DNA of 64,000 nt, taken from positions 1 through 64,000 of IMG/VR virus record IMGVR_UViG_3300007960_000015. One strand, written 5' to 3'. Under the pieces are notes generated by a model, which ran no database searches, had not been told where the DNA came from, and saw nothing but the letters and a program-made list of their open reading frames with translations. The stretch is from a virus. Below, piece after piece: positions 609-58,204 of this stretch. The position numbers and the translations under genes were made by a program. The number at the start of each line of letters is the position of its first letter. Position 1 is the first letter of the stretch.

Positions 609-1716
609 TATTTCGAAATACAGAGTTATTATCTCCGTTCAGGGTGGAGAGGGTGTTGACATTACAAAAAATGTCGATAAAATTACTATCAGAGAATCGC
701 TAGGAGATGAGTTAATCGGTGAAATTCATTATGATGATTCTAATGGTTTAGCAGATACTATATCTTGGTTTAATGAGGCGGTGTCCATCTCATTTGAATA
801 TTTAGGTGTGTCTTATCATAGTACCTTTATTACTGATGGTATTAGAGGTGTAACTAAAAAATCTAGTTCTAAAACGTTTGTGATTGATCTTAAAGCTGTA
901 AACCATTTAAAAGATTCTATGGCATTATGTGCAAAGAGTTTTTCTGGCACAGCCACTAATGTTATTAAAAAGATTCATGAAGAGTTTTTTGATAATGATT
1001 TATTGGTTAAGGATGAAGCCTTAAATAGAGGTATGTTTATTAGTCCTAATATAAGTCCGAAGAAAGCTATTAATATGATTTTAAATAAGAGTTATAATAA
1101 AGAAGACTCTCCATTTATGCAATTTCAACATTTTATTGGAAAGAAGAGTCCTGTTATTATTAATTCATTACAGAAGATGATAGCAAATGATCCGATATGT
1201 AACTTTACACAATTAAATTCCTTAGATAAAACTAATCTTAAGGCTATTATGGGGCAGGCGGAGAAGTTAGTTATCGATGGCGATGTAACAGCTGCTGTAG
1301 CCAAAAGAGCTGCTGGGGAATTTGGAAGAACTGTGATAGGTTATAATTTAGAAAAGCAAGAGGTTGAGGCTGTAGCTCTTGGCAACGATGTTAATGGTGT
1401 TAATACAATGATACCATTTAGAAGTAACATGTATAATCACAGAGAACAACCTCTACTAAATAATGGTGATGCTGTACATATCTTTACAGCCAAGTTTGTG
1501 AATAGTTTTCTGAATCAACAAACTATGTCAATATACGATTGCCATCCTAATCACTGCGGTGTTGGTGATACAGCAGAAATAACAGTAGACGCTGTTGTCG
1601 GAGATCATGATGTACCTTCAGAAAAGTATTCGGGAAAATATCTTATTAAAGACATCATACATAATATTATTGGTGATGAGTTTAGACAAAACCTTAGGAT
1701 GAATAAAGTTGAATAA
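601..1716 (+). CDS. Putative baseplate hub protein (gp27-like)
   Basis: 371 aa; lies between gp53 and gp5; C-terminal VGDTAEI...YSGKYLIKDIIHNI motif typical of hub/gp27-like proteins. Confidence 0.6.
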   Translation: MANISKYRVIISVQGGEGVDITKNVDKITIRESLGDELIGEIHYDDSNGLADTISWFNEAVSISFEYLGVSYHSTFITDGIRGVTKKSSSKTFVIDLKAVNHLKDSMALCAKSFSGTATNVIKKIHEEFFDNDLLVKDEALNRGMFISPNISPKKAINMILNKSYNKEDSPFMQFQHFIGKKSPVIINSLQKMIANDPICNFTQLNSLDKTNLKAIMGQAEKLVIDGDVTAAVAKRAAGEFGRTVIGYNLEKQEVEAVALGNDVNGVNTMIPFRSNMYNHREQPLLNNGDAVHIFTAKFVNSFLNQQTMSIYDCHPNHCGVGDTAEITVDAVVGDHDVPSEKYSGKYLIKDIIHNIIGDEFRQNLRMNKVE

Positions 1717-2662
1717 ATTATATTTTGGTATTGTAGAGAGTTTGCAAGATCCTTTAAAATTAGGGAGGATACAGGTACGGGTATATAATGTCCATCCTGT
1801 AGATAAAACTAAGGTACCTACAGATTCTTTAGTATGGTCATTAGTAGTTACTCCTACCACATCTCCTTCTATATCAGGACTTGGACATAGCCCATTTTTA
1901 GTTAATGGATCTACAGTAGTTGGTTACTATATTGATGATGCCTACCAAGACTTTTTAATTTTAGGTACTATATCAGGCACACAATCTAGTTCGACACAAA
2001 TTATCCCTTCACAGGGCTTTGCTGATCCCGAAGGACAGTATCCAAGAGCTCTTGAGGATCCGGATTTAAATATTAGATCTAGGGAAGGTGATGATCCAGA
2101 TGCGGAGTTTGATATAACAAGGGGTACTTATCAACCGTATTCTACCTATAACCCTCAATACCCTCATAACCATGTATATGAAACAACCTCAGGTCATTTA
2201 AAAGAGTATGATGATACACCCGGGGCTGAACGTATTAGAGAGAAACACACTTCAGGTACTTATTACGAAATACAGTCTAATGGCACTAAGGTAGAAAGAA
2301 TACAAAGAGACAATTACCAATTAATCATCGGCGATGATACTATAGAGGTAAAGGGAAGTGTTAATGTTATAGTATCTGGTAATGCTAATGTGGCTGTGGC
2401 AGGTAATGTGGATGCTCATGTTCAAGGTAATATCACAGCTGTAGGGGAACAAAACCTATCCGCATCTATTACCGATAAGATCAACGTGACAGCAGGTAAT
2501 GATATTAACATTACAACTAATAAGAGTGCACATATACAAGCCTCTGATAATATTAACATTAGAGCTGATAAAGCTATGGAAATATACGCTAAGGATGACA
2601 TTTTAATTAAATCTGATAAGAATATCCAATTAAAAGGCGAGAATATTTATATAAATGAATAA
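1709..2662 (+). CDS. gp5: Baseplate central spike gp5 (OB-fold + beta-helix, no lysozyme domain)
   Basis: DPLKLGRIQVRV...PTDSLVW OB-fold; YPHNHVYETTSGHLKEYDDTPGAERI; C-terminal VxG beta-helix repeats. Confidence 0.9.
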   Translation: MNKLYFGIVESLQDPLKLGRIQVRVYNVHPVDKTKVPTDSLVWSLVVTPTTSPSISGLGHSPFLVNGSTVVGYYIDDAYQDFLILGTISGTQSSSTQIIPSQGFADPEGQYPRALEDPDLNIRSREGDDPDAEFDITRGTYQPYSTYNPQYPHNHVYETTSGHLKEYDDTPGAERIREKHTSGTYYEIQSNGTKVERIQRDNYQLIIGDDTIEVKGSVNVIVSGNANVAVAGNVDAHVQGNITAVGEQNLSASITDKINVTAGNDINITTNKSAHIQASDNINIRADKAMEIYAKDDILIKSDKNIQLKGENIYINE

Positions 2663-3072: not shown

Positions 3073-4928
3073 TGGCGACAAATAGACAAATTAATGTTTC
3101 AGAACTAGATTTTAATCAAATAAAGAGTAATCTGATAGAGTACATGGAGGCTCAACCAGCTCCATTCTCTGATTATAACTTTGAAGGTTCTGCTATGTCA
3201 ACTGTAATTGACGTGTTAGCATATATTACACATATTAATGCTGTTAATGCTCACTTTGCTTTAAATGAAACATTTATTGATACAGCACAACTTAGAGAAA
3301 GCGTTGTATCACATGCGAAGCTTCTAGGATATACACCACATTCTACCAAGCCTGCTTTAGCAAAGATTAATTTACTTATTAATAATCCTATTAATGTTTT
3401 GGATGAGAATAATAAGAATCTTCCTCTCACTATAACAAGAGGCACAGCATTCACTACAACAATCAACTCGGTCACTTATCCTTTTATGGTTTCAGATACT
3501 ACTACTATTAATGTTAATTCAGAGGGTAACTATATATTTGAAGACCTTATTATAGAACAAGGGCAATTAAAAACAACTACCTATGTGTATGACGACAGAG
3601 GATTTGAACACTATTATCTTTTTGATGATGCTGTTAATACCAATTCTGTAAAGGTTACTATCTTTGAATCAGACTCATCAACACAAAGCGAGATTTATGT
3701 TCCTGCTGGAAATGTAGCATCCTTATCTAATACGACTCCGATATTCTTTTTAGAAGAGAGTAGAGAGGGTTTGTATGAAATTAAATTTGGTGATGGTGTT
3801 ATCGGAAAGAAACCTAAGAACGGTAATATTATATCAATAAGTTATTCTGTGGTGGGTAATAATAATGTCAATGGTGCTTCACAATTTGCTTTAGCCGGAG
3901 ATATTAATGGTAATACTAATGCTACAGTAACTGTGATTGATAATGCCTCAGGATATAGTAAGAGGGAAACAAAGGATTCTATTAAATTTAATGCACCTCT
4001 CGGTTATGTAGCTCAAAATAGAGCGGTTACGCCAGATGACTATAAGGCTATTATCCAGAATAATTGGGGTGACATTGAAACACTAACTGTTTGGGGCGGT
4101 GAAGATAATATTCCACCTGATTATGGAAAAGTATATGTATCCATTAAACCTTTATCCGGACCAGCTTTATCAGATACAGATAAAGCTGCTATTATTCATA
4201 ACTATTTAAAACCAAAGAATGTGGTGTCAATTACCCCTGTATTAGTAGATCCGGATTACACATATATTAAATTAGACATACACTTTAAATATAATCCTAA
4301 TGTATCTGATGTTACTTCAGCCGGTCTTTCTAATAATATAAGAACAGAAATCAATACTTATAAACAAGATCAATTAGATAACTTCGGTGGTGTATTTAGA
4401 TATTCAAACCTATCTAAAAGAATAGATGATTCTCATATTGCTATTATATCTAACGTAACTAGAGTACAAGTATATAAGGAGTTTACTCCCGCATTAAATA
4501 CAGAGAAACTATATACGTTTAATTTTAATCAGCCGCTGCGTGATTATGATGGATCTGATAGTACAATCAAATCTTCAGAATTTACTTATATGGGTCATGT
4601 ATGTTATTTACAAGATTATTACGATTCAGAAAAAGAAAAGTATATCGTTAGAGTGGTGACTACAGATGAAACAATACTAGCTACTAACGTTGGTGAAGTA
4701 AATAGATTAACTGGTCACGTAAGTCTTACCGGATTCGTACCACAATCTGTTATAGATATTTCTGGTGTTCTTAAATTATTTGCTAAGACGGCTTCTAATG
4801 ATATTAAACCAAGTAGAAATGAATTAATTACTATTGATGTTAATGAAACCACAATTCAAGGGGAAGTAGATACTATGGTGACAGGAGGTACTACTGCAGG
4901 TATTGATTATAATACAGTGAATAGCTAA
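3072..4928 (+). CDS. gp6: Baseplate wedge subunit gp6
   Basis: ELDFNQIK..DYNFEGS..AQLRESVVSHAKLLGY; FGDGVIG; QNRAVTPDDY; WGGEDN. Confidence 0.93.
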   Translation: MATNRQINVSELDFNQIKSNLIEYMEAQPAPFSDYNFEGSAMSTVIDVLAYITHINAVNAHFALNETFIDTAQLRESVVSHAKLLGYTPHSTKPALAKINLLINNPINVLDENNKNLPLTITRGTAFTTTINSVTYPFMVSDTTTINVNSEGNYIFEDLIIEQGQLKTTTYVYDDRGFEHYYLFDDAVNTNSVKVTIFESDSSTQSEIYVPAGNVASLSNTTPIFFLEESREGLYEIKFGDGVIGKKPKNGNIISISYSVVGNNNVNGASQFALAGDINGNTNATVTVIDNASGYSKRETKDSIKFNAPLGYVAQNRAVTPDDYKAIIQNNWGDIETLTVWGGEDNIPPDYGKVYVSIKPLSGPALSDTDKAAIIHNYLKPKNVVSITPVLVDPDYTYIKLDIHFKYNPNVSDVTSAGLSNNIRTEINTYKQDQLDNFGGVFRYSNLSKRIDDSHIAIISNVTRVQVYKEFTPALNTEKLYTFNFNQPLRDYDGSDSTIKSSEFTYMGHVCYLQDYYDSEKEKYIVRVVTTDETILATNVGEVNRLTGHVSLTGFVPQSVIDISGVLKLFAKTASNDIKPSRNELITIDVNETTIQGEVDTMVTGGTTAGIDYNTVNS

Positions 4929-49718: not shown

Positions 49719-50088
49719 GTTTTTAATAATCAGTTTATTAATTCAACCTGTCGCAGCCTTAGACGATTATAATTTAAGGTATTTTGGTCCGGATGCCAAG
49801 ATAGAAATAGGCAGAACTGCAGTTATTGTAAAGGTGATATTCCATCCTGATGAGGAAGCATTAAATGAGGAGTGGATGAGATATAACGAAGGGGATAGAT
49901 TCGATAAACACTTTCCGGGTATTAGAGGTTTTACCCTAGTAAATAGTGAAGATCCTGTATGTTATATTCATATGGAAAAGGCTGAAATTTGGGATGATAG
50001 AGAGAATATGACTATTTTAGGTCATGAGATGTATCATTGTCTGTTAGCAAGCCATCAGGAAGCTGATGAAAGCTCAACTGAAGATTAG
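49702..50088 (+). CDS. Secreted protein with HExxH zinc-metallopeptidase-like motif
   Basis: AGGAGG RBS before ATG 49702; signal peptide MRNVFKFLIISLLIQPVAA; ILGHEMYHC. Confidence 0.55.
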   Translation: MRNVFKFLIISLLIQPVAALDDYNLRYFGPDAKIEIGRTAVIVKVIFHPDEEALNEEWMRYNEGDRFDKHFPGIRGFTLVNSEDPVCYIHMEKAEIWDDRENMTILGHEMYHCLLASHQEADESSTED

Positions 50089-50623
50089 ACCTTCTCTCTG
50101 TAATATTTTCAACACTGTGGATAATCCGAGTATCTAAAATATACCAGCAGTTTAAAGGTCCTTTTATTGACTCCAATAATTTAAGATCAGCACTTCTATC
50201 TATAGCTAACCCCCTTTCTCTTTCAATAGGATATCCATTTTCTTGCCAAAATGAAAGGGTGGCGTCAGGTCCTCCTACTTCAAAATTATACAACATAACA
50301 TAACGTCGTGTAGTATCCGTATGTGGGAGTTGTTCGTGATCGAAAAACATCACCCCAGAATTGTCTCTTATAAAATCCGGAGTAATATTATTACTCATCC
50401 ATTCTTCGTCTTCTCGATTAAATCTATACCTAAGATTGTTATTAGACACCATAGGTTTAATCCAATCATAAGACTGATCCTTCCAATCTTCAACTTCATC
50501 GATAGAGACATAGTCATCCGCAGTAGGACTAAACAGATCTAAATCTGGACGATATCTCATATCGATTTTATTGATCATCCAATCGGGTGGATGAGGTAAA
50601 TTGGGAAGGAGCTTAAAGTACAC
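50012..50623 (-). CDS. Cupin/2OG-Fe(II) oxygenase-like protein
   Basis: LPHTD...YNFEVGG...WYILDTRIIHSVENI..RR (HxD...H). Confidence 0.55.
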   Translation of the reverse strand: MYFKLLPNLPHPPDWMINKIDMRYRPDLDLFSPTADDYVSIDEVEDWKDQSYDWIKPMVSNNNLRYRFNREDEEWMSNNITPDFIRDNSGVMFFDHEQLPHTDTTRRYVMLYNFEVGGPDATLSFWQENGYPIERERGLAIDRSADLKLLESIKGPLNCWYILDTRIIHSVENITERRSNLQLSFHQLPDGLLTDNDTSHDLK

Positions 50624-51471
50624 TACTTCTTATCTAACCAATGAGCTGTCATCTTATCTACGAATGTTGCCATGTTGTCAATATCATCTTGTGTTACATT
50701 GAAAGTACCATCAACTAATGACTTTTTCATATAAGCTTGAAATTCAGGATCAGTCGACCATGCTTTTAGTTTTGCTAACAAATCTTCGTTTTTAGTATTT
50801 GTATATACTAGGTAACCAATTTTAAAATCAGGTACTTTTAATCCTGGTAGTGCCTTTCCGATATAGTTGTCTTTTTTAGGATCTGTAGTATATAAACATT
50901 CTAGATTACCTTTTGCCACTTGTTTTTTAGCTAAACCAGAACCAATCCAACCTAAAGAAATATCACCAGCACGTAAAGCATTTACAACAGTCTTTGAACC
51001 TGAGTAAGGAACAATAGTTAGATCGCCTGCACCTGCATCACGCATCTTACTTTCATGTGCCTTTGTTGCATACATAGATGCCATGCCCAAAGCATTTGTT
51101 TGTCCTACAACTAAATCGTTATCTGTACCAGGTCTACGACAAATCCAAATAGGAGTACCGCCGGCAAATAAAGTATTTTCAGGTGTGGCTAAACTAGGAC
51201 AATTTAAACCTTTATTACGAGCACCAAATTCCATTGAGGAGTTGTAAATAAATACAGCATCTTTCTTCTCTTCATAAGCCCTTCCTGCATCTTCACAATT
51301 TGAACCTTGATAATATTTACCACCAACAGACTTCTTTACACCCATAGCAAATACAGTAGTAGGACTTGCTTTAGAGCTAGGCGATACAATTGTTAATTGA
51401 TCCTCTCCAAAAAAGGCCATACTTGTTGTAGCGATTGCTGTAAGTATGATTGTAGATAACGTTTTCTTCAT
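50623..51471 (-). CDS. tctC: Tripartite tricarboxylate transporter substrate-binding protein (TctC-like)
   Basis: Signal peptide; IVPYSGSKTVVNALRAGDI matches the TctC VPYxG...ALxxGxV motif; adjacent to tctA; AGGAG RBS. Confidence 0.7.
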   Translation of the reverse strand: MKKTLSTIILTAIATTSMAFFGEDQLTIVSPSSKASPTTVFAMGVKKSVGGKYYQGSNCEDAGRAYEEKKDAVFIYNSSMEFGARNKGLNCPSLATPENTLFAGGTPIWICRRPGTDNDLVVGQTNALGMASMYATKAHESKMRDAGAGDLTIVPYSGSKTVVNALRAGDISLGWIGSGLAKKQVAKGNLECLYTTDPKKDNYIGKALPGLKVPDFKIGYLVYTNTKNEDLLAKLKAWSTDPEFQAYMKKSLVDGTFNVTQDDIDNMATFVDKMTAHWLDKK

Positions 51472-51486
51472 TATATTATTTCTCCT

Positions 51487-52788
51487 TTAATAAAAATAAA
51501 TGTTATAGGTCTGTATATATAACCAAACCAGCTTATCCCCTAAAATTGTGGCGAATAAAAACGGAAGGGGTGATACGTTTTTATATTTTAGAATAAACCC
51601 GAGTAATGTAAATAATCCTAAAAGGATAAAGTACATTAGGATGGTCAATTCAGATGCCCATAAGTCAACAATAATTAACGAACCCAATAAAACTGCTAGT
51701 ATGATTTTCATCTTATGATGAATGGCAACGATGAATTTCGCATACCAGTCAATTAAATGAGTTGATAATATATAGTAAAGTCCTAAACACAATAATAAGA
51801 TTAACATAGAAGCGTCTACTACTCTTAATCCTTCAATAACACTCGGCTCATATATTTCATCAAATATAGTCATACCTTTCATGTCTACAATATTACTCAT
51901 TAATAACGCATTAAAGTTAATAGGTAATGCTAATAACATTAAAGGAATTGAACAAGTAATTACTGAGGAATTATTTGCTGTTTCAGCCGCAATAATCTTT
52001 TTCTTTACATCTTTCCCTGCTGTCTTGTATGCGGCAATAGCAGCTAAAGAGGAACTTGGACCTGGTATAAGTCCTGCGATAGATCCAATCACCGCTGATT
52101 TTATAGCCAGATAGAATGAATAGGTTTTATCTTTAATAGCTTCGTAGTGATCATCCAATACAGCCCTCCTATCAGTACTCATAAAGACGTCTGGAAGAAC
52201 CACAGCCCCTAATGCTAACATATAGAACGTATATCCTTGAGTATAATATTGTAAATTAAACCAAGTATCAGGAATAGCATAATTTTGTTTAGGACCTAGC
52301 ATTATACCGAGTAATACTAAACCTATTGTCCACCACCATCTCTTATCTAAAAATACAAAGGATAACATAGCTAAAGTATACAATGAGGCCTGGAATGGAA
52401 TACCCATTAACCAAGGCATATTAGCAATATTAATATATTCTATACAGAACCATACAAATAATGTAGATAGAGTTCCAGCAATCCAAGAACCATAAGCGGT
52501 GGAATGAAGGAGTGAATTTTTAACTTCATGTGTTAAATTATCTAAGTCACGAATATAAACTAGACTTGATTCTTCTCCAGGTATTTTTGTTGTGATAACG
52601 GCGATTGAGCCGAAGAATTGTGATCCAGATACAACAGCTAACCAAAAGGTAATTAGATGTTCTAAAGGGAAATCATTATAAAAGTAAAATAATAGGAAAG
52701 GGCCTGTGAATACCGGTAATGCAGGTAATAATCCTGTTAATACACCAACGCCTACACCAGCTAAGGCCAATAATAATAATTCGATCAT
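51487..52788 (-). CDS. tctA: Tripartite tricarboxylate transporter permease (TctA family)
   Basis: Multi-TM; GVLTGLLP; FFGSI...KIPGE; GLIPG; IIAAETANNS; PLMLLALP. Confidence 0.85.
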   Translation of the reverse strand: MIELLLLALAGVGVGVLTGLLPALPVFTGPFLLFYFYNDFPLEHLITFWLAVVSGSQFFGSIAVITTKIPGEESSLVYIRDLDNLTHEVKNSLLHSTAYGSWIAGTLSTLFVWFCIEYINIANMPWLMGIPFQASLYTLAMLSFVFLDKRWWWTIGLVLLGIMLGPKQNYAIPDTWFNLQYYTQGYTFYMLALGAVVLPDVFMSTDRRAVLDDHYEAIKDKTYSFYLAIKSAVIGSIAGLIPGPSSSLAAIAAYKTAGKDVKKKIIAAETANNSSVITCSIPLMLLALPINFNALLMSNIVDMKGMTIFDEIYEPSVIEGLRVVDASMLILLLCLGLYYILSTHLIDWYAKFIVAIHHKMKIILAVLLGSLIIVDLWASELTILMYFILLGLFTLLGFILKYKNVSPLPFLFATILGDKLVWLYIQTYNIYFY

Positions 52789-52834: not shown

Positions 52835-52842
52835 TATAAATA
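52835..52842 (+). promoter_or_regulatory. T4-type late promoter box
   Basis: TATAAATA immediately upstream of 52851. Confidence 0.65.
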
Positions 52843-52850
52843 TAGTTAAT

Positions 52851-53198
52851 GTGGAGAATAAAATGGAAATTTTAACTTTAGATACGTTTAGTTTACAGGT
52901 AGCTGATTTAATAACACCCTTTTTGGCGTTATTGATCGTTATCATTACGGGTATATTTGTGAAGGATTTGGCCATTGATTTAGCTAATGGAGTCGCATTT
53001 AAACTCTTTAGTCCTTTCAAAGAGGGTGACGAAGTAATCCTAGATGATAAGAGAGCTACTATAATAAGGATAGGACTAACTGTAACAGTTTTTGGATATA
53101 ATGATGACGCGAAAGGTTACATTTGGAGATACGTCCCTAATGATAAAATTGGCAATTTAAGGCTCGGTAAAATCATTTCTAAGGCAAATAAAATATAA
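52851..53198 (+). CDS. Small MscS-like (mechanosensitive channel beta-domain) membrane protein
   Basis: TM followed by KDL...ANG....PFKEGDEVILDD..A.I.RIGL..T...VPN. Confidence 0.65.
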   Translation: MENKMEILTLDTFSLQVADLITPFLALLIVIITGIFVKDLAIDLANGVAFKLFSPFKEGDEVILDDKRATIIRIGLTVTVFGYNDDAKGYIWRYVPNDKIGNLRLGKIISKANKI

Positions 53199-53201
53199 AT
53201 A
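53194..53201 (+). promoter_or_regulatory. T4-type late promoter box
   Basis: TATAAATA upstream of 53230. Confidence 0.6.
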
Positions 53202-53229
53202 TTAATAGTATTTGTTAGAAGGAAAACAG

Positions 53230-53616
53230 ATGGAGCATAAGGATTTAAGCGCACTGGAAATAGAATTAGCAGTATTGCAAAGGGATGTGAAGAATTACGA
53301 GAATAAAAAAGCGGAAGTCCCCAATTGGGTTAAGAACTCTTCTGCGGCAATTATATTAGCTATTTTCACACAAACAATAGCTTCAGTTTGGTGGGCTTCG
53401 GCTATAACCGCCAATGTAGACAATCTACGAAAAGAGGTTAGACTAAATACAGAGTTTAGATTATTGTTTCCTAAAATGAAAGAAGACATAATGATCGAAT
53501 TGAATAAACTGGGATCACAAAATAGTCATTTATCTGAAAAAATTGATACAATTAAAGGCATAGTTATTGGTCCTGATAGTGGCCATAATTTTAAAATCAC
53601 CCCATTAACGGAATAA
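53230..53616 (+). CDS. Hypothetical single-TM coiled-coil protein
   Basis: ATG 53230 after GAAGGA; TM AIILAIFTQTIASVWWAS. Confidence 0.5.
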   Translation: MEHKDLSALEIELAVLQRDVKNYENKKAEVPNWVKNSSAAIILAIFTQTIASVWWASAITANVDNLRKEVRLNTEFRLLFPKMKEDIMIELNKLGSQNSHLSEKIDTIKGIVIGPDSGHNFKITPLTE

Positions 53617-53620
53617 ATTT

Positions 53621-55042
53621 ATGAAATCATTTACTGAATCATTAAAAGGCGATAAAGAAGCATACCAGGCATTTTTTAAAAAAGCACTAAAGAAGTTTGG
53701 TGTTGATGAACCTGATCAATTATCTGGCGATAAGAAAAAGGAATTTTTTAATTACGTAGATAAAAATTGGAAGGCTGATAATGAGACAGATGTAGATGAG
53801 GGACTTTCTCCACTTTCTAAAGGCACTAGAAAACACATCGACCGTGTTCGTGATGATAATAATGAAAGATTAAAAAAGTTAAGAGCATCGAAGAGAAAGA
53901 AGAATCCTACTTTCATGGACAAGTTTAAAAAAGGATTTAAAAAAGAAGATTTAGATTTAGACGAAGCACTTAACAAAGATTGGATTAAAGCAGTAAATAA
54001 TCTCAGTAAGAAAATGGGTGCGAGTGTTGCTAAGTCATCTAAAGGTGGTATTATTCCTTTCGCATCAAGAGTTGGTAAAACTACTAATATTGGTTATACT
54101 GATTCTAAAGGAAAGAGACATGTAGTATTCTCTACTGATAAACCATTATCTAATAAAGAAGAAGATAAAATGATGGCTGATATTCGTAAGAAGTTTGCGA
54201 TTAAGGAAGCAAGAGTACCAAGTGATGATAACTTTAAAGGCGCTGGTTATTCTGGTGAAAAGGGTTTCAAAAATAAAGCAGTAGCATCGAGAGGTGGTTC
54301 GACTGCTGGAAGAAATCGTAGTCGAGCAGCACAGAGAAAAGCACAAGAAGGTATGATAGATGCCGCTATAAAACAAGATCTAAAAGCTTTTAGGAAACAT
54401 GCTGTAGCAATGTCTAAAAGTATAGCATCGCAGACTAAACAAAAAGAACCAATCCAAACAATGTGGACTAAAGAAAAAGCAAAAGCATTGAAAGACGGAA
54501 CTTGGTTTAAGATGAGTTACCAACAACAGAAAAAGATAGAGGGTGACAAACCAAGATATGAACCTTTTGATTGGGGTCAAAGAGAATCGGTAGAAGATAT
54601 GAATAAATTAAATGAAGCTTTTGATGTTCCGAACATAGATTATTCAAAATTAAAAGACTATAAAGGTTTCCAGAATATTAACATCAACAAGATGATTAAG
54701 GCAAATAATTTCGCTAAGTTTAATGTAAAGACAATACAAGATGTTATTGTTTGGTTAAACATGGTTGCGATGCAATGGAAAGCAGGTAATCTGAAAGAAG
54801 AAGTTGAAATCGAAGAAGCAGTGGCAGTTGATATGAGAACTAAAGGTTATAAGGAAGCGGTGAAGAGAGCTTTACTAAAGAAAAAGAAATGTAAGAAAGA
54901 TACTTATGAAGTAAAGAATGATGATGTTTTGGAAATCGATGGTGTTTCTTCAAAGCCTAAGACAGAGGATGTGACTACAGCTAATGTAGCAACAACCCCT
55001 AAACCATTATCAACAATGCGCCGTAAGAAGAAAGATTACTAG
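53621..55042 (+). CDS. Lys-rich putative internal head protein with repeated prohead-protease-type sites
   Basis: N-terminal YQAFFKKALKKFG...KKKEFFNYVDKNW; basic blocks separated by VDE/LDE/IKE/LNE/LKE/IEE motifs. Confidence 0.5.
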   Translation: MKSFTESLKGDKEAYQAFFKKALKKFGVDEPDQLSGDKKKEFFNYVDKNWKADNETDVDEGLSPLSKGTRKHIDRVRDDNNERLKKLRASKRKKNPTFMDKFKKGFKKEDLDLDEALNKDWIKAVNNLSKKMGASVAKSSKGGIIPFASRVGKTTNIGYTDSKGKRHVVFSTDKPLSNKEEDKMMADIRKKFAIKEARVPSDDNFKGAGYSGEKGFKNKAVASRGGSTAGRNRSRAAQRKAQEGMIDAAIKQDLKAFRKHAVAMSKSIASQTKQKEPIQTMWTKEKAKALKDGTWFKMSYQQQKKIEGDKPRYEPFDWGQRESVEDMNKLNEAFDVPNIDYSKLKDYKGFQNININKMIKANNFAKFNVKTIQDVIVWLNMVAMQWKAGNLKEEVEIEEAVAVDMRTKGYKEAVKRALLKKKKCKKDTYEVKNDDVLEIDGVSSKPKTEDVTTANVATTPKPLSTMRRKKKDY

Positions 55043-55050
55043 ATTATGAA

Positions 55051-56694
55051 ATGGCTAGCGCAGCAAGAATAGGGGATACAGTATCCGTACATGAATGTGG
55101 TGTAACCCCTACAGCAGCAACTGGTTCTCCAAATGTTTTTATTAATGGCATAGCTGCCCATAGAGTTGGGGATACAAATACTGCTCATCCATATGCTCCT
55201 GTTACCTGTCCAACGCATGAAACCGCGTTAACATCAGGTTCACCAAATGTATTTGTTAATGGACAACCATTAGGCAGAGTTGGTGATCCTTATTCCTGTG
55301 GAATAACTGTAACGTCAGGATCCCCTAATGTTCTTATAAACGAATCATACACACCAACTAAAACATCAGAACCTCTGATGAGGAGTTATACCGCATCTAA
55401 ACTTAATGTATTAGAGATGATAGCGGCTCTTACTATTTTCAATCAAGTAAAAGAACATAGTCAACTTACTAAAACACAAAGAAATGATGTTTTGGTAGGA
55501 GGTGTATTTAAAACTGTTAAAGAATATAATGATCAAATTGATGAAGTATTAAGTAGACAACCACAATACGCTAAAGATATACAATCATTTAGAGGTGCCC
55601 AAGGAGCTTATGTTAAAGGAAAGTGGATTCCATATGAGGAATTCATAACAAAATATAAAGATCAAATAGATAATTTTGGCAGATTAAATAGACAGAGGCG
55701 ATCTTTGCACGAAAAAATGTATGAATTTGATGCGACTACCAAAACATTAAAGCTTAAATCAGATATTGCATTAATACAAGCACAATATAGAACAATAAGC
55801 GATCTTATGATGGAAACTCAGAAGGTTATGATCGATAACATGCACCATCAAAACATTGCTGATGTATTATGGAAACATTCCTCTATTGTATTAGACAAGC
55901 CAATAATTATTGAAAGAATTCATAAGTTATATGACACATCTTTTGAAGATAATGCTAGTAAGCCTATAAAGAATGCTTCAACATATTCTGCCACAGTCGT
56001 GGATGCAAAGGATATTGAGGTGGGTAAAGAAAAAATGTTCTTTATTATACCAGCAGGCTCTAAGGTTATTCATACCGGAGGTTTATCTGATTTTGCTGAA
56101 ATACTAGTATCTGGTGATACTCTTAATGCTGCTAAAATTAAAATGAATGGTACAGTGTATGCCGCATTAAACACATTACAAGATGGTAAATTATTAGATT
56201 CTGAAACTATTAAAGAGATAAGAGACATATACGTTTCCAGAAATAATTCAGAGCCTCCGAAATGGTGGGCGGATTTAATGGATGATGTTGAAAATACTCC
56301 TAATAAATCATGGAGGCTTAATTTATTATTAGTAGTATTAACAGGTACTACGTCTTGGTTTAGTGATAACGAAGAATATTGGGATATTTGGAAGTCTAGT
56401 GATATGAAACAACTTAACAGTGCCTTAACCAAATATTATGGAGAGTCCACTTGGAATATGGCTCAATTTGGTAATACCGATATACCATTTCATGATAGAA
56501 TGGATAATCTAGCATTAGCTATGTTTGTACAAACAGTAGATGTTCTTTCTACGCTTCCATTTGCCGCATTTGGTGCTGCAGAAAAATATATTTGGGAAGA
56601 TAATATTGTTGAGGGCTGGATATATTTAATGGAAGGTTTAGGTGATTTAGAGGAAGCAATAGAAGATTTATTGACTCCTCCTGAGGGTTGGTAA
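55051..56694 (+). CDS. PAAR spike-tip protein (gp5.4-like) fused to ~450-aa C-terminal extension
   Basis: aa1-97: AARIGD..H..GSPNVFING.AAHRVGD...H..H..GSPNVFVNG.PLGRVGD..SCG..GSPNV; the frame continues to 547 aa. Confidence 0.85.
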   Translation: MASAARIGDTVSVHECGVTPTAATGSPNVFINGIAAHRVGDTNTAHPYAPVTCPTHETALTSGSPNVFVNGQPLGRVGDPYSCGITVTSGSPNVLINESYTPTKTSEPLMRSYTASKLNVLEMIAALTIFNQVKEHSQLTKTQRNDVLVGGVFKTVKEYNDQIDEVLSRQPQYAKDIQSFRGAQGAYVKGKWIPYEEFITKYKDQIDNFGRLNRQRRSLHEKMYEFDATTKTLKLKSDIALIQAQYRTISDLMMETQKVMIDNMHHQNIADVLWKHSSIVLDKPIIIERIHKLYDTSFEDNASKPIKNASTYSATVVDAKDIEVGKEKMFFIIPAGSKVIHTGGLSDFAEILVSGDTLNAAKIKMNGTVYAALNTLQDGKLLDSETIKEIRDIYVSRNNSEPPKWWADLMDDVENTPNKSWRLNLLLVVLTGTTSWFSDNEEYWDIWKSSDMKQLNSALTKYYGESTWNMAQFGNTDIPFHDRMDNLALAMFVQTVDVLSTLPFAAFGAAEKYIWEDNIVEGWIYLMEGLGDLEEAIEDLLTPPEGW

Positions 56695-56695
56695 T

Positions 56696-57436
56696 ATGAG
56701 CAATTGGTTTTTAGATTATTTTACATCAGCTGTTACTTCTCGTATTTTTCCTCCGAAGAAATTAAATGCTTGTAAGAAGAGCGATAACGCTTTAAAATAT
56801 TCTGGTCAATTATTTGGTAGATATACTAGATTCGCTATAATGCTTACTTACGATTCATTAATGAGAAGAAATAAATTAGTGGATGTTTCTTACGATGAAT
56901 TTGAATCTAATATGCTTTGGATGTTATCGGTTATTGTAGATGTAGAAAATGAACCTTGGGAATGGACATTAGCTAATAAGACATCAGGAGCTTATGGGTA
57001 TTTTCAAATATTAAATGTTGATTGGTTTCAAACCTCATTAAACAGAATGAATAATCAAATTGAAGCAGCTGCAAAATATAATAATAGAGATTGGTATATG
57101 CCAAAATTTGAATTTAAGTTACCTTTGGCTATGGAACAAATACAAAGAGATTTAGATGAGAAAAAGACAAAGGAATACATTATTGATGTTAGAAATCCAG
57201 ATTTAATTTCAGCGTTAGTAGTATCACATATAGCAGAAGCATCAGGGACAGATGAGGCATTAATAGGTCTTCAAACAAATCCTGTCGATTCAGCTAAAAT
57301 TGCTTATTATAGAGGTCATCATTTAGATGCTACGTTAATTAATAAATCTAATGCACAATTATTAAATGGTAAGGCTTTCTCTAGTAAAAATAAATCAGTT
57401 TACACCAATGTTGAATCAAAAATCAAATGCTTATAA
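56696..57436 (+). CDS. Lytic transglycosylase/lysozyme-like fold protein
   Basis: IVDVE...ANKTSGAYGYFQI resembles the SLT E...A.N..SGA.G..Q signature. Confidence 0.5.
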   Translation: MSNWFLDYFTSAVTSRIFPPKKLNACKKSDNALKYSGQLFGRYTRFAIMLTYDSLMRRNKLVDVSYDEFESNMLWMLSVIVDVENEPWEWTLANKTSGAYGYFQILNVDWFQTSLNRMNNQIEAAAKYNNRDWYMPKFEFKLPLAMEQIQRDLDEKKTKEYIIDVRNPDLISALVVSHIAEASGTDEALIGLQTNPVDSAKIAYYRGHHLDATLINKSNAQLLNGKAFSSKNKSVYTNVESKIKCL

Positions 57437-57439
57437 ATA
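57432..57439 (+). promoter_or_regulatory. T4-type late promoter box
   Basis: TATAAATA 25 nt upstream of gp13. Confidence 0.7.
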
Positions 57440-57463
57440 ACTGTATAAAATTAAGGAATTATT

Positions 57464-58204
57464 ATGGCTAAGGTAACCAGTAGAGCAGAATTGGCAGATC
57501 ATGCTTTAAGAGCATTGGGTGCACCTGTAATCGAAATTAATGTAGATCCAGATCAAGTAGAAGATAGAATTGATGATGCTATTCAATATTATCAAGAATA
57601 TCATACTGATGCTGTTATCAGGAACTATCGTAAACACCAGTTAACTGCCACAGATATTACTAACTCATATATTGATACCCCGGATTCTGTATTGACTGTT
57701 ATGCGTGTTTTAGACTTTGGCAATAGCAATATTAATTTGGAATTTAATGTAGAATATCAGATGAGACTTCATGACATTATGACTTGGGGTGCTTCTGGTA
57801 ATTTACAATTATATGATCAAAGAATGCAACATTTAAATCTGATTGATCATAGATTAAATTCAGCTGAATTATTAAGATTTAATAGGCATATGAATCGCCT
57901 TCATGTAGATCAGGGTTTTGGCGGTTTAGAAGCTGGAGATTATATTGTAATAGAAACTATAGAATCAATCGATCCGGAGCAATACAGTGACGTATATAAT
58001 GATATGTTTTTAAAGAGATACGTTACTGCCCTAATTAAAAGACAGTGGGGTGCTAACATGAGTAAGTTTGAAGGTATGCAATTACCTGGTGGAGTTACTA
58101 TGAATGGCCTTGAAATATATAATCAAGCAAATGAAGAAATTATGAGAATCGAAGAGGAAATGATTTTGAATTGGTCAGAGCCCGACACATTCCTCATGGG
58201 GTAA
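57464..58204 (+). CDS. gp13: Neck protein gp13
   Basis: LRALGAPVIEINV..DQVEDRID.A; LKRYVTALIKRQWG.N.SKFEGMQLPGGVTMNG. Confidence 0.95.
   Translation: MAKVTSRAELADHALRALGAPVIEINVDPDQVEDRIDDAIQYYQEYHTDAVIRNYRKHQLTATDITNSYIDTPDSVLTVMRVLDFGNSNINLEFNVEYQMRLHDIMTWGASGNLQLYDQRMQHLNLIDHRLNSAELLRFNRHMNRLHVDQGFGGLEAGDYIVIETIESIDPEQYSDVYNDMFLKRYVTALIKRQWGANMSKFEGMQLPGGVTMNGLEIYNQANEEIMRIEEEMILNWSEPDTFLMG

Follow-up and report, generated by a model that had tools for sequence, protein, structure and literature searches.

A PAAR spike-tip protein of a T4-like phage with a conserved 450-residue extension that may contain a divergent ADP-ribosyltransferase-like domain

The uncultured aquatic T4-like myovirus represented by IMG/VR record IMGVR_UViG_3300007960_000015 encodes a PAAR spike-tip protein that continues far beyond its PAAR domain. 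The record is 79.5 kb long with an estimated completeness of 44%, and the window analysed here comprises its first 64,000 nt. A single plus-strand open frame with an ATG start (55051–56694) specifies 547 amino acids (aa), of which residues 1–97 (55051–55341) form the PAAR domain, as indicated by matches to Pfam PF05488 (E = 6.7e-15, 55.5 bits against a cutoff of 27), PHROG 281 (E = 2.4e-28) and NCBIfam NF033420 (T6SS_PAAR_dom, E = 1.1e-16, with positions 1–93 of the 94-position profile covered), and, in the PDB, to 4jiw, 4jiv and T4 gp5.4. This domain is 47–48% identical to the stand-alone PAARs of cultured Yersinia, Cobetia, Synechococcus and Prochlorococcus phages, and the fusion gene is the sole PAAR gene of the 79.5-kb record. 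The same record encodes a cognate spike with a beta-helical tip, a 317-aa homologue of gp5 (1709–2662, plus strand; PHROG 430, E = 1.4e-78), which lies 52.4 kb upstream of the fusion and is the presumed docking partner of the PAAR domain. It contains a Gp5_OB domain (Pfam, E = 3.4e-23, residues 32–135) and weaker matches to beta-helix families from residue 168, such that the OB domain runs straight into the beta-helix and the lysozyme domain is absent. A sequence-only reading of the window had described a complete PAAR domain of about 97 aa continuing in frame for some 450 aa, with gp5 about 52 kb away, and both observations were confirmed.

One nucleotide past the stop codon of the fusion gene begins a 246-aa gene (56696–57436, plus strand), which directly follows the fusion in all seven related loci. 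Its family has an invariant D82-x-E84 motif and an invariant A-Y-G-x-F-Q motif (A99-Y-G-Y-F-Q104), and when the family profile was compared with the PDB the only matches were c-type lysozymes, over the catalytic stretch (E = 0.049, below the curated threshold). An NCBIfam Apf C-terminal-like (lysozyme-like) domain was matched by residues 80–130 below its cutoff (E = 0.0017), and Pfam Lys matched one family member (E = 0.13). A profile search with the 246-aa protein for more relatives recovered only itself. Based on these sequence features the 246-aa protein is probably a lysozyme-like muralytic enzyme, and it may supply the muralytic activity that is absent from gp5. Because the same protein is recorded on a 136.7-kb contig, a longer assembly of this phage exists.

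Phage PAAR proteins are normally stand-alone and about 95 aa long (PMC7824862), and the long frame might be an artefact, produced by loss of a stop codon or by chimeric assembly, that runs an ordinary PAAR gene of 97 aa into its neighbour. Querying 5.8 billion proteins with residues 100–547 yielded seven relatives, and an exhaustive phmmer search of 1.84 billion cluster representatives with the extension alone returned seven proteins, comprising six relatives (four of them new) and one false positive, the 855-aa protein P0013, which we rejected as a repetitive fibre-like protein. In total, about 11 relatives from independent metagenomes share the architecture and synteny at 33–92% identity. 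The full-length members are 550–662 aa long and all carry the N-terminal PAAR domain, and one 382-aa member appears to be N-terminally truncated. At seven IMG/VR loci from different samples the relatives run in one frame from the PAAR domain to a terminal LLTPP(D/E)GW motif, except at locus L009, where the match begins at the contig end and the C-terminal module has an apparent frameshift (~1069–1132). The fusion at metagenome locus L012 is likewise frameshifted in the C-terminal module, near its end (~4600–4668), and these two cases could be assembly errors or decayed copies. A metagenome scan for further relatives added only duplicates and one frameshifted copy. Contigs from two other sequencing runs bridge the PAAR/extension junction without an indel, and six of the seven natural single-nucleotide variants in the fusion gene and the next gene are synonymous. 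Because eleven relatives keep PAAR and extension in one frame, the junction is bridged and the variants are mostly synonymous, the earlier worry that a stop had been lost after residue ~98 is answered: the fusion is real, and the artefact explanation, refuted by the relatives and the bridging contigs, retains a negligible probability. DNA nearly identical to 54900–57500 was present in runs labelled freshwater or seawater metagenome from several studies, and contigs of one marine metatranscriptome library touch the fusion gene, which leaves its transcription unproven.

Outside this group, a tblastn search of 50,697 phage records with the fusion protein gave no match covering more than 27% of the query and none beyond the PAAR part; a Desulfovibrio phage match that seemed to reach further proved to be a 98-aa stand-alone PAAR. 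A profile search found no stand-alone forms of the middle domain (143–515 aa) at E ≤ 10, protein and profile searches found no sequence relative of the cargo in bacteria, and Methylophilales phage Melnitz has no PAAR at the syntenic place. The extension family is tiny and always fused to PAAR.

The extension is divided into segments of very different conservation, which we quantified in a 12-sequence alignment (an 8-sequence alignment for the linker invariants). The PAAR domain is the most conserved segment of the family, with a mean pairwise identity of 59% and 25 of 97 positions invariant. It is followed by a linker (residues 98–139; 55342–55467) with a conserved amphipathic helix (..LEMIA.L..), modelled at low confidence, in which E122, M123, I124, A125 and L127 are invariant. 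The next segment is a variable helical sub-domain (140–264; 55468–55842; 29% identity, 4 of 125 positions invariant), modelled at a predicted local distance difference test (pLDDT) score of 79–94, which contains an invariant FRG motif (R181, 55591–55593) and a long helical hairpin (~195–263) that matches unrelated coiled coils. A conserved beta-rich core (265–375; 55843–56175; 48% identity, 19 of 111 positions invariant) holds the candidate Arg–Ser–Glu (R-S-E) residues R289 (55915–55917), S313 (55987–55989) and E350 (56098–56100) together with P334 and G336; its invariant positions include R289, T311-Y312-S313, P334, G336, D347, E350 and L352. The strings LDKPIIIER (281–289), ASTYS (309–313) and MFFIIPAGSKVIHTGGLSDFAEILV (329–353), from which the sequence-only reading had picked out R289, S313 and E350, are located as it described them. 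These three residues, chosen from one sequence, are all invariant in the 12 sequences where only about one position in six is, which independently supports the view that they matter.

A poorly conserved helical connector (376–419; 56176–56307; 33% pairwise identity, one invariant position, pLDDT 43–66) leads to a C-terminal module (420–547; 56308–56694; 47% identity, 17 of 128 positions invariant) that is helical by prediction and includes two moderately hydrophobic helices (~420–438 and ~487–508). Kyte–Doolittle peaks over 19 residues reach 1.0–1.9 across the family, glycine-zipper-like stretches occur in this module in members P0009–P0011, and Q494 and D497 are invariant within the second hydrophobic helix. 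Searches of the PDB and Pfam found no relative of this module, and judged by its sequence the C-terminal end of the extension looks membrane-active. The final LLTPP(D/E)GW tail (540–547; 56668–56691) is almost invariant in a family that is otherwise 33–45% identical, and looks like a docking or recognition motif.

To explore the fold of the middle domain, we compared structural models of the extension with known proteins. An AlphaFold model of the full-length protein was poor (pLDDT 54, with even the PAAR part badly modelled), and VIA-wide returned only helical hairpins for it; Foldseek with the same model nevertheless placed VIP2, a toxin of the C3/VIP2-type ADP-ribosyltransferases (ARTs), at the top of its ranking, and its first 30 matches also included Vis toxin, CDTa and Ia. 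Folding residues 140–405 with the 12-sequence alignment gave a model with a pLDDT of 75 and a predicted TM-score (pTM) of 0.65, in which helices are followed by seven strands. In this model R289 comes directly after strand 285–288, the T-Y-S sequence lies on strand 311–317, the P-x-G motif is located in a hairpin and E350 starts strand 350–354. Against the PDB, VIP2 again ranked first (E = 0.12, with no match below E = 0.001), and VIP2, CDTa, Certhrax, C3bot1/2, Ia and BECa together made up about half of the first 50 matches; the first 50 from BFVD contained at least nine entries with an ART, VIP2 or C3 annotation (best E = 0.019, probability 0.82). Superposition on C3/VIP2-type ARTs matched 131–139 residues at 3.6–4.4 Å, with model positions 13–232 aligned to the ART domains of the toxins; the helices of the variable sub-domain fall within the part of the model that is aligned to the toxins' N-terminal helices. 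The aligned ranges end 21 residues past E350 in the extension and, in toxin numbering, at what we take to be 17–18 residues past the catalytic Glu, consistent with E350 occupying the catalytic-Glu position. Compared with ten natural C3/VIP2-type ARTs, taken from plasmids and aligned as a reference, the spacing from Ser to the Pro of P-x-G is 21 residues (22 in the reference) and from this Pro to Glu 16 (19 in the reference). T311, Y312 and S313 are invariant and are followed by A/T and then T/Y, and the resulting S-A-T fits the S-T-S motif without being canonical. A second invariant Arg, R181 of the FRG motif, was weakly aligned to the ART Arg by HMMER; we did not adopt it as the beta1 Arg because it lies in a confidently predicted helix, and at most it may be a second Arg for the NAD phosphate.

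The predicted fold resembles that of C3/VIP2-type ARTs (VIP2, 1qs2; iota Ia, 4h03; CDTa; C3bot; Certhrax; PF03496) in that N-terminal helices precede a beta core in which an invariant Arg ends a strand, an S-x-T sequence occupies the next strand, P-x-G forms a hairpin and an invariant Glu starts a strand followed by an h-L-h pattern. The extension differs from these toxins by a ~70-residue inserted helical hairpin and by the uncertain strands after the Glu strand. Several further results weigh against an ART assignment. No Pfam ART family matched the extension and PF03496 matched nothing in the whole record, both at E ≤ 10; hhalign against the 10-member C3/VIP2 alignment, also run in local and global variants, gave probabilities of 1–3%, with weak local alignments in conflicting registers; HMMER comparison of the extension with ARTs, run with filters off, gave nothing significant; searching the PDB with a profile built from the domain alignment brought up nothing but coiled-coil noise; and two ESM Atlas look-ups returned SH3-like noise with scores of 0.75–0.77. 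The spacing from Arg to Ser is 24 residues (24–37 across the family) compared with ~46 in the reference, as short as the sequence-only reading had noted, and the ADP-ribosylating toxin turn-turn (ARTT) loop is ~3–5 residues shorter than in the toxins and lacks the first Glu/Gln. The same reading had pointed out that only one Glu is present, and indeed position 348 is F here and F, K, H, N, G, S, R or T across the family, so that of the [QE]-x-E signature only the second, catalytic-position Glu is found.

Since the sequence tests fail and the [QE]-x-E signature is incomplete, we do not file the middle domain in PF03496. What stood of the proposed ART-like motifs is the fold resemblance of the model and the invariance of R289, S313 and E350; the sequence-profile link and a complete ExE did not. 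Structural search of the extension placed VIP2 first with both the full-length and the domain model, the latter giving no E below 0.001 against the PDB. Taking the modelling together with these points, we consider it reasonably likely that the middle domain adopts a divergent ART-like fold, and give slightly less than even odds to its using NAD+ catalytically. A single-Glu ART fold would be no worse a fit for an NAD(P)+ glycohydrolase, or for an enzyme whose acceptor is non-standard, than for a classic transferase acting on protein Arg or Asn, and with the first Glu/Gln of the ExE missing, the domain may only hydrolyse NAD(P)+ or modify a non-protein acceptor. The 79.5-kb record, at an estimated completeness of 44%, yielded neither an ARH nor a Macro partner.

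We propose, with a probability of roughly 0.5, that the gene product is a spike-tip effector combined with an envelope-penetration module and carrying a divergent ART-fold domain. The PAAR cone would cap the gp5 beta-helix, with the 450-residue cargo hanging below the baseplate; the cargo would consist of a first module (residues ~150–375) with a very divergent C3/VIP2-like ART fold, bearing R289, S313 within S-A-T, the P-x-G hairpin and E350, and a second, helical module (420–547) with its two hydrophobic helices. Sheath contraction would drive the spike tip across the outer membrane into the periplasm, where the wall would be opened by the lysozyme-like product of the neighbouring gene. Insertion of the hydrophobic helices into the inner membrane would then bring the ART-like domain to its cytoplasmic face, where it would modify a host target using NAD+ at the very start of infection. 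Of this scheme, the analysis shows the identity of the PAAR domain, the conservation of the fusion, its synteny, the pattern of conserved residues and the resemblance of a predicted model at the level of the fold. We infer that the protein sits on gp5, that virions contain the cargo and deliver it, that the helices enter the membrane, and that the domain acts on NAD and on a host target. A more far-reaching version, which we hold only tentatively, is that the phage tail tip performs T6SS-style delivery (T6SS, type VI secretion system) of a self-translocating protein made of PAAR, an ART-fold enzyme and a membrane-helix module, before or as the DNA enters, and that the enzyme either alters a host target chemically or uses up NAD(P)+.

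Two other explanations account for much of the same evidence. The extension may be a purely structural or mechanical device for envelope penetration, in which the ART-like fold serves as an adaptor without catalysis, comparable to the pseudo-ART N-domains of binary toxins, the scaffold carries or positions the lysozyme-like neighbour on a lysozyme-less spike and the hydrophobic helices breach the inner membrane or gate it for DNA entry. The absence of a lysozyme domain from gp5 and the constant co-occurrence of a lysozyme-like gene 1 nt downstream speak for this, as do the incomplete ExE, the missing sequence-profile link to ARTs and the glycine-zipper-like hydrophobic helices of the C-terminal module; in addition, T4 gp5.4 acts in envelope penetration, and the tip of phage RB43 is large and non-enzymatic-looking (PMC12407873). 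Against it, R289, S313 and E350 are invariant while their helical surroundings drift to 29% identity, a conservation pattern that would not be expected of a mere adaptor, and we therefore disfavour this explanation and consider it doubtful, if well worth keeping in view. It is also compatible with the effector proposal; it keeps the steps up to membrane insertion and drops catalysis. Alternatively, the ART resemblance itself may be spurious, the domain being a new alpha/beta fold, for example for receptor or envelope binding, that AlphaFold with only 12 sequences allowed to drift to an ART-like topology. This we find improbable, because the same narrow family emerges from both structure libraries and from two models that were built separately, an aligner that works without Foldseek selects it as well, and the invariant residues fall in three sequence blocks that follow the order of those in ARTs at ART-like distances.

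With T4 gp5.4 and other stand-alone phage PAARs (PDB 4ku0, 5iv5) the fusion protein shares the N-terminal 97-residue PAAR domain and the T4-like genome with its gp5 beta-helix. Stand-alone phage PAARs are ~93–100 aa with nothing attached and have been described as caps unfused to effectors (PMC7824862), whereas here 450 more residues follow and the gene lies by the neck genes, 52 kb from gp5. The evolved PAARs of T6SSs (e.g. Tse6, with its transmembrane helices, Tre23 and Tas1) likewise combine a PAAR cone and cargo in one polypeptide, and the PAAR regions of Tre23 and Tas1 are among the sequence matches of the fusion protein. As in Tse6, passage of the cargo through the inner membrane could depend on the hydrophobic helices, but these lie C-terminal to the cargo and do not flank the PAAR domain. 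The setting also differs, being a lytic-type T4-like virion operon with a lysozyme-like downstream gene in place of a recognisable immunity gene: we found no vgrG, no T6SS or extracellular contractile injection system (eCIS) locus and no recognisable immunity gene after the fusion, and PADLOC gave no matches.

T4 Alt and the MuF-fused or polyvalent head-packaged ARTs embody the same concept, a virion-borne NAD-using enzyme acting at infection, but they enter from the head with the DNA, whereas the candidate enzyme here would ride outside on the spike tip; a 2022 survey of viral NAD and ADP-ribose systems treats ARTs that are head-packaged, MuF-fused or polyvalent, with no mention of PAAR (PMC9503650). 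A large tip is tolerated in T4-like phage RB43, which is described as lacking a gene 5.4 orthologue and whose orf205w tip protein of ~690 aa, with an alpha/beta part and a long helical part, is seen as extra density at the tip, and in the case of P2 gpV, contraction delivers the tip to the periplasm (PMC12407873). Enterobacteria and Escherichia phages were absent from the organism groups listed by name in our tblastn search of the 50,697 phage records, a listing that covers all but nine smaller groups.

The wider locus places the fusion within the virion genes. Baseplate genes encoding a gp53-like protein, a hub protein, gp5, gp25, gp6 and gp8 occupy the left end of the window, and the fusion adjoins the neck and tail genes gp13, gp14 and gp15 (57.4–59.9 kb), of which gp15 encodes a protein ~44–47% identical to those of Melnitz and cyanomyoviruses. 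In the gene order conserved among the related loci, two membrane proteins of 115 and then 134 aa come first, followed by a Lys-rich protein of 473 aa, the PAAR fusion and the 246-aa protein. The fusion and its 246-aa neighbour diverge much faster (33–43% identity) than the neck proteins (58–85%). The order of the three genes upstream of the fusion (52851–55042) is kept in the related loci that reach that far upstream. The 115-aa protein and the 134-aa protein (PHROG 26926) each have one hydrophobic helix, and the 473-aa protein is widely conserved only in its N-terminal ~50 residues, with its C-terminal ~24 kept in one relative; these genes could encode further envelope-penetration or ejection proteins. 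Between the 246-aa gene and gp13 the window has 27 nt, compared with ~0.8–2 kb of other DNA in relatives (L003, 3432–5425; L004, 6228–7069; L006, 3665–5859; L007, 8621–10626; L008, 6335–8198), and the lysozyme-like gene of L008 contains a large insertion. A minus-strand cassette (50012–52788) interrupts the plus-strand late region; among its genes is one for a full-length tricarboxylate transporter permease of the TctA family (Pfam, E = 3.6e-36). Motifs of the T4 late-promoter type, TATAAATA, are not enriched overall (17 found, 17.8 expected), but 16 of the 17 are on the plus strand and many lie just upstream of gene starts (52835, 53194, 57432, 61749 and others). Those at 52835 and 53194 are just upstream of the fusion block and the next one, at 57432, precedes gp13; their strand and positions alone are suggestive.

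The architecture of a cargo-bearing PAAR is shared with the evolved PAARs of T6SSs, but its context, a phage virion module, is not. If the effector proposal is true, this phage would inject an effector by way of its spike tip, a route distinct from that of head-packaged Alt, which would suggest that evolved PAAR effectors exist in phages and perhaps arose there. A conserved phage PAAR with enzyme-like and membrane-active cargo would add a third way of virion protein delivery and would link phage tails and T6SS effectors in function as well as in structure. It would also offer a system for asking what the spike tip does once the outer membrane has been pierced, a question that is open even for T4. 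Even if the domain is non-catalytic, the locus solves envelope penetration in an unusual way, combining a gp5 that lacks lysozyme with an extended tip and a lysozyme-like protein encoded by its own gene.

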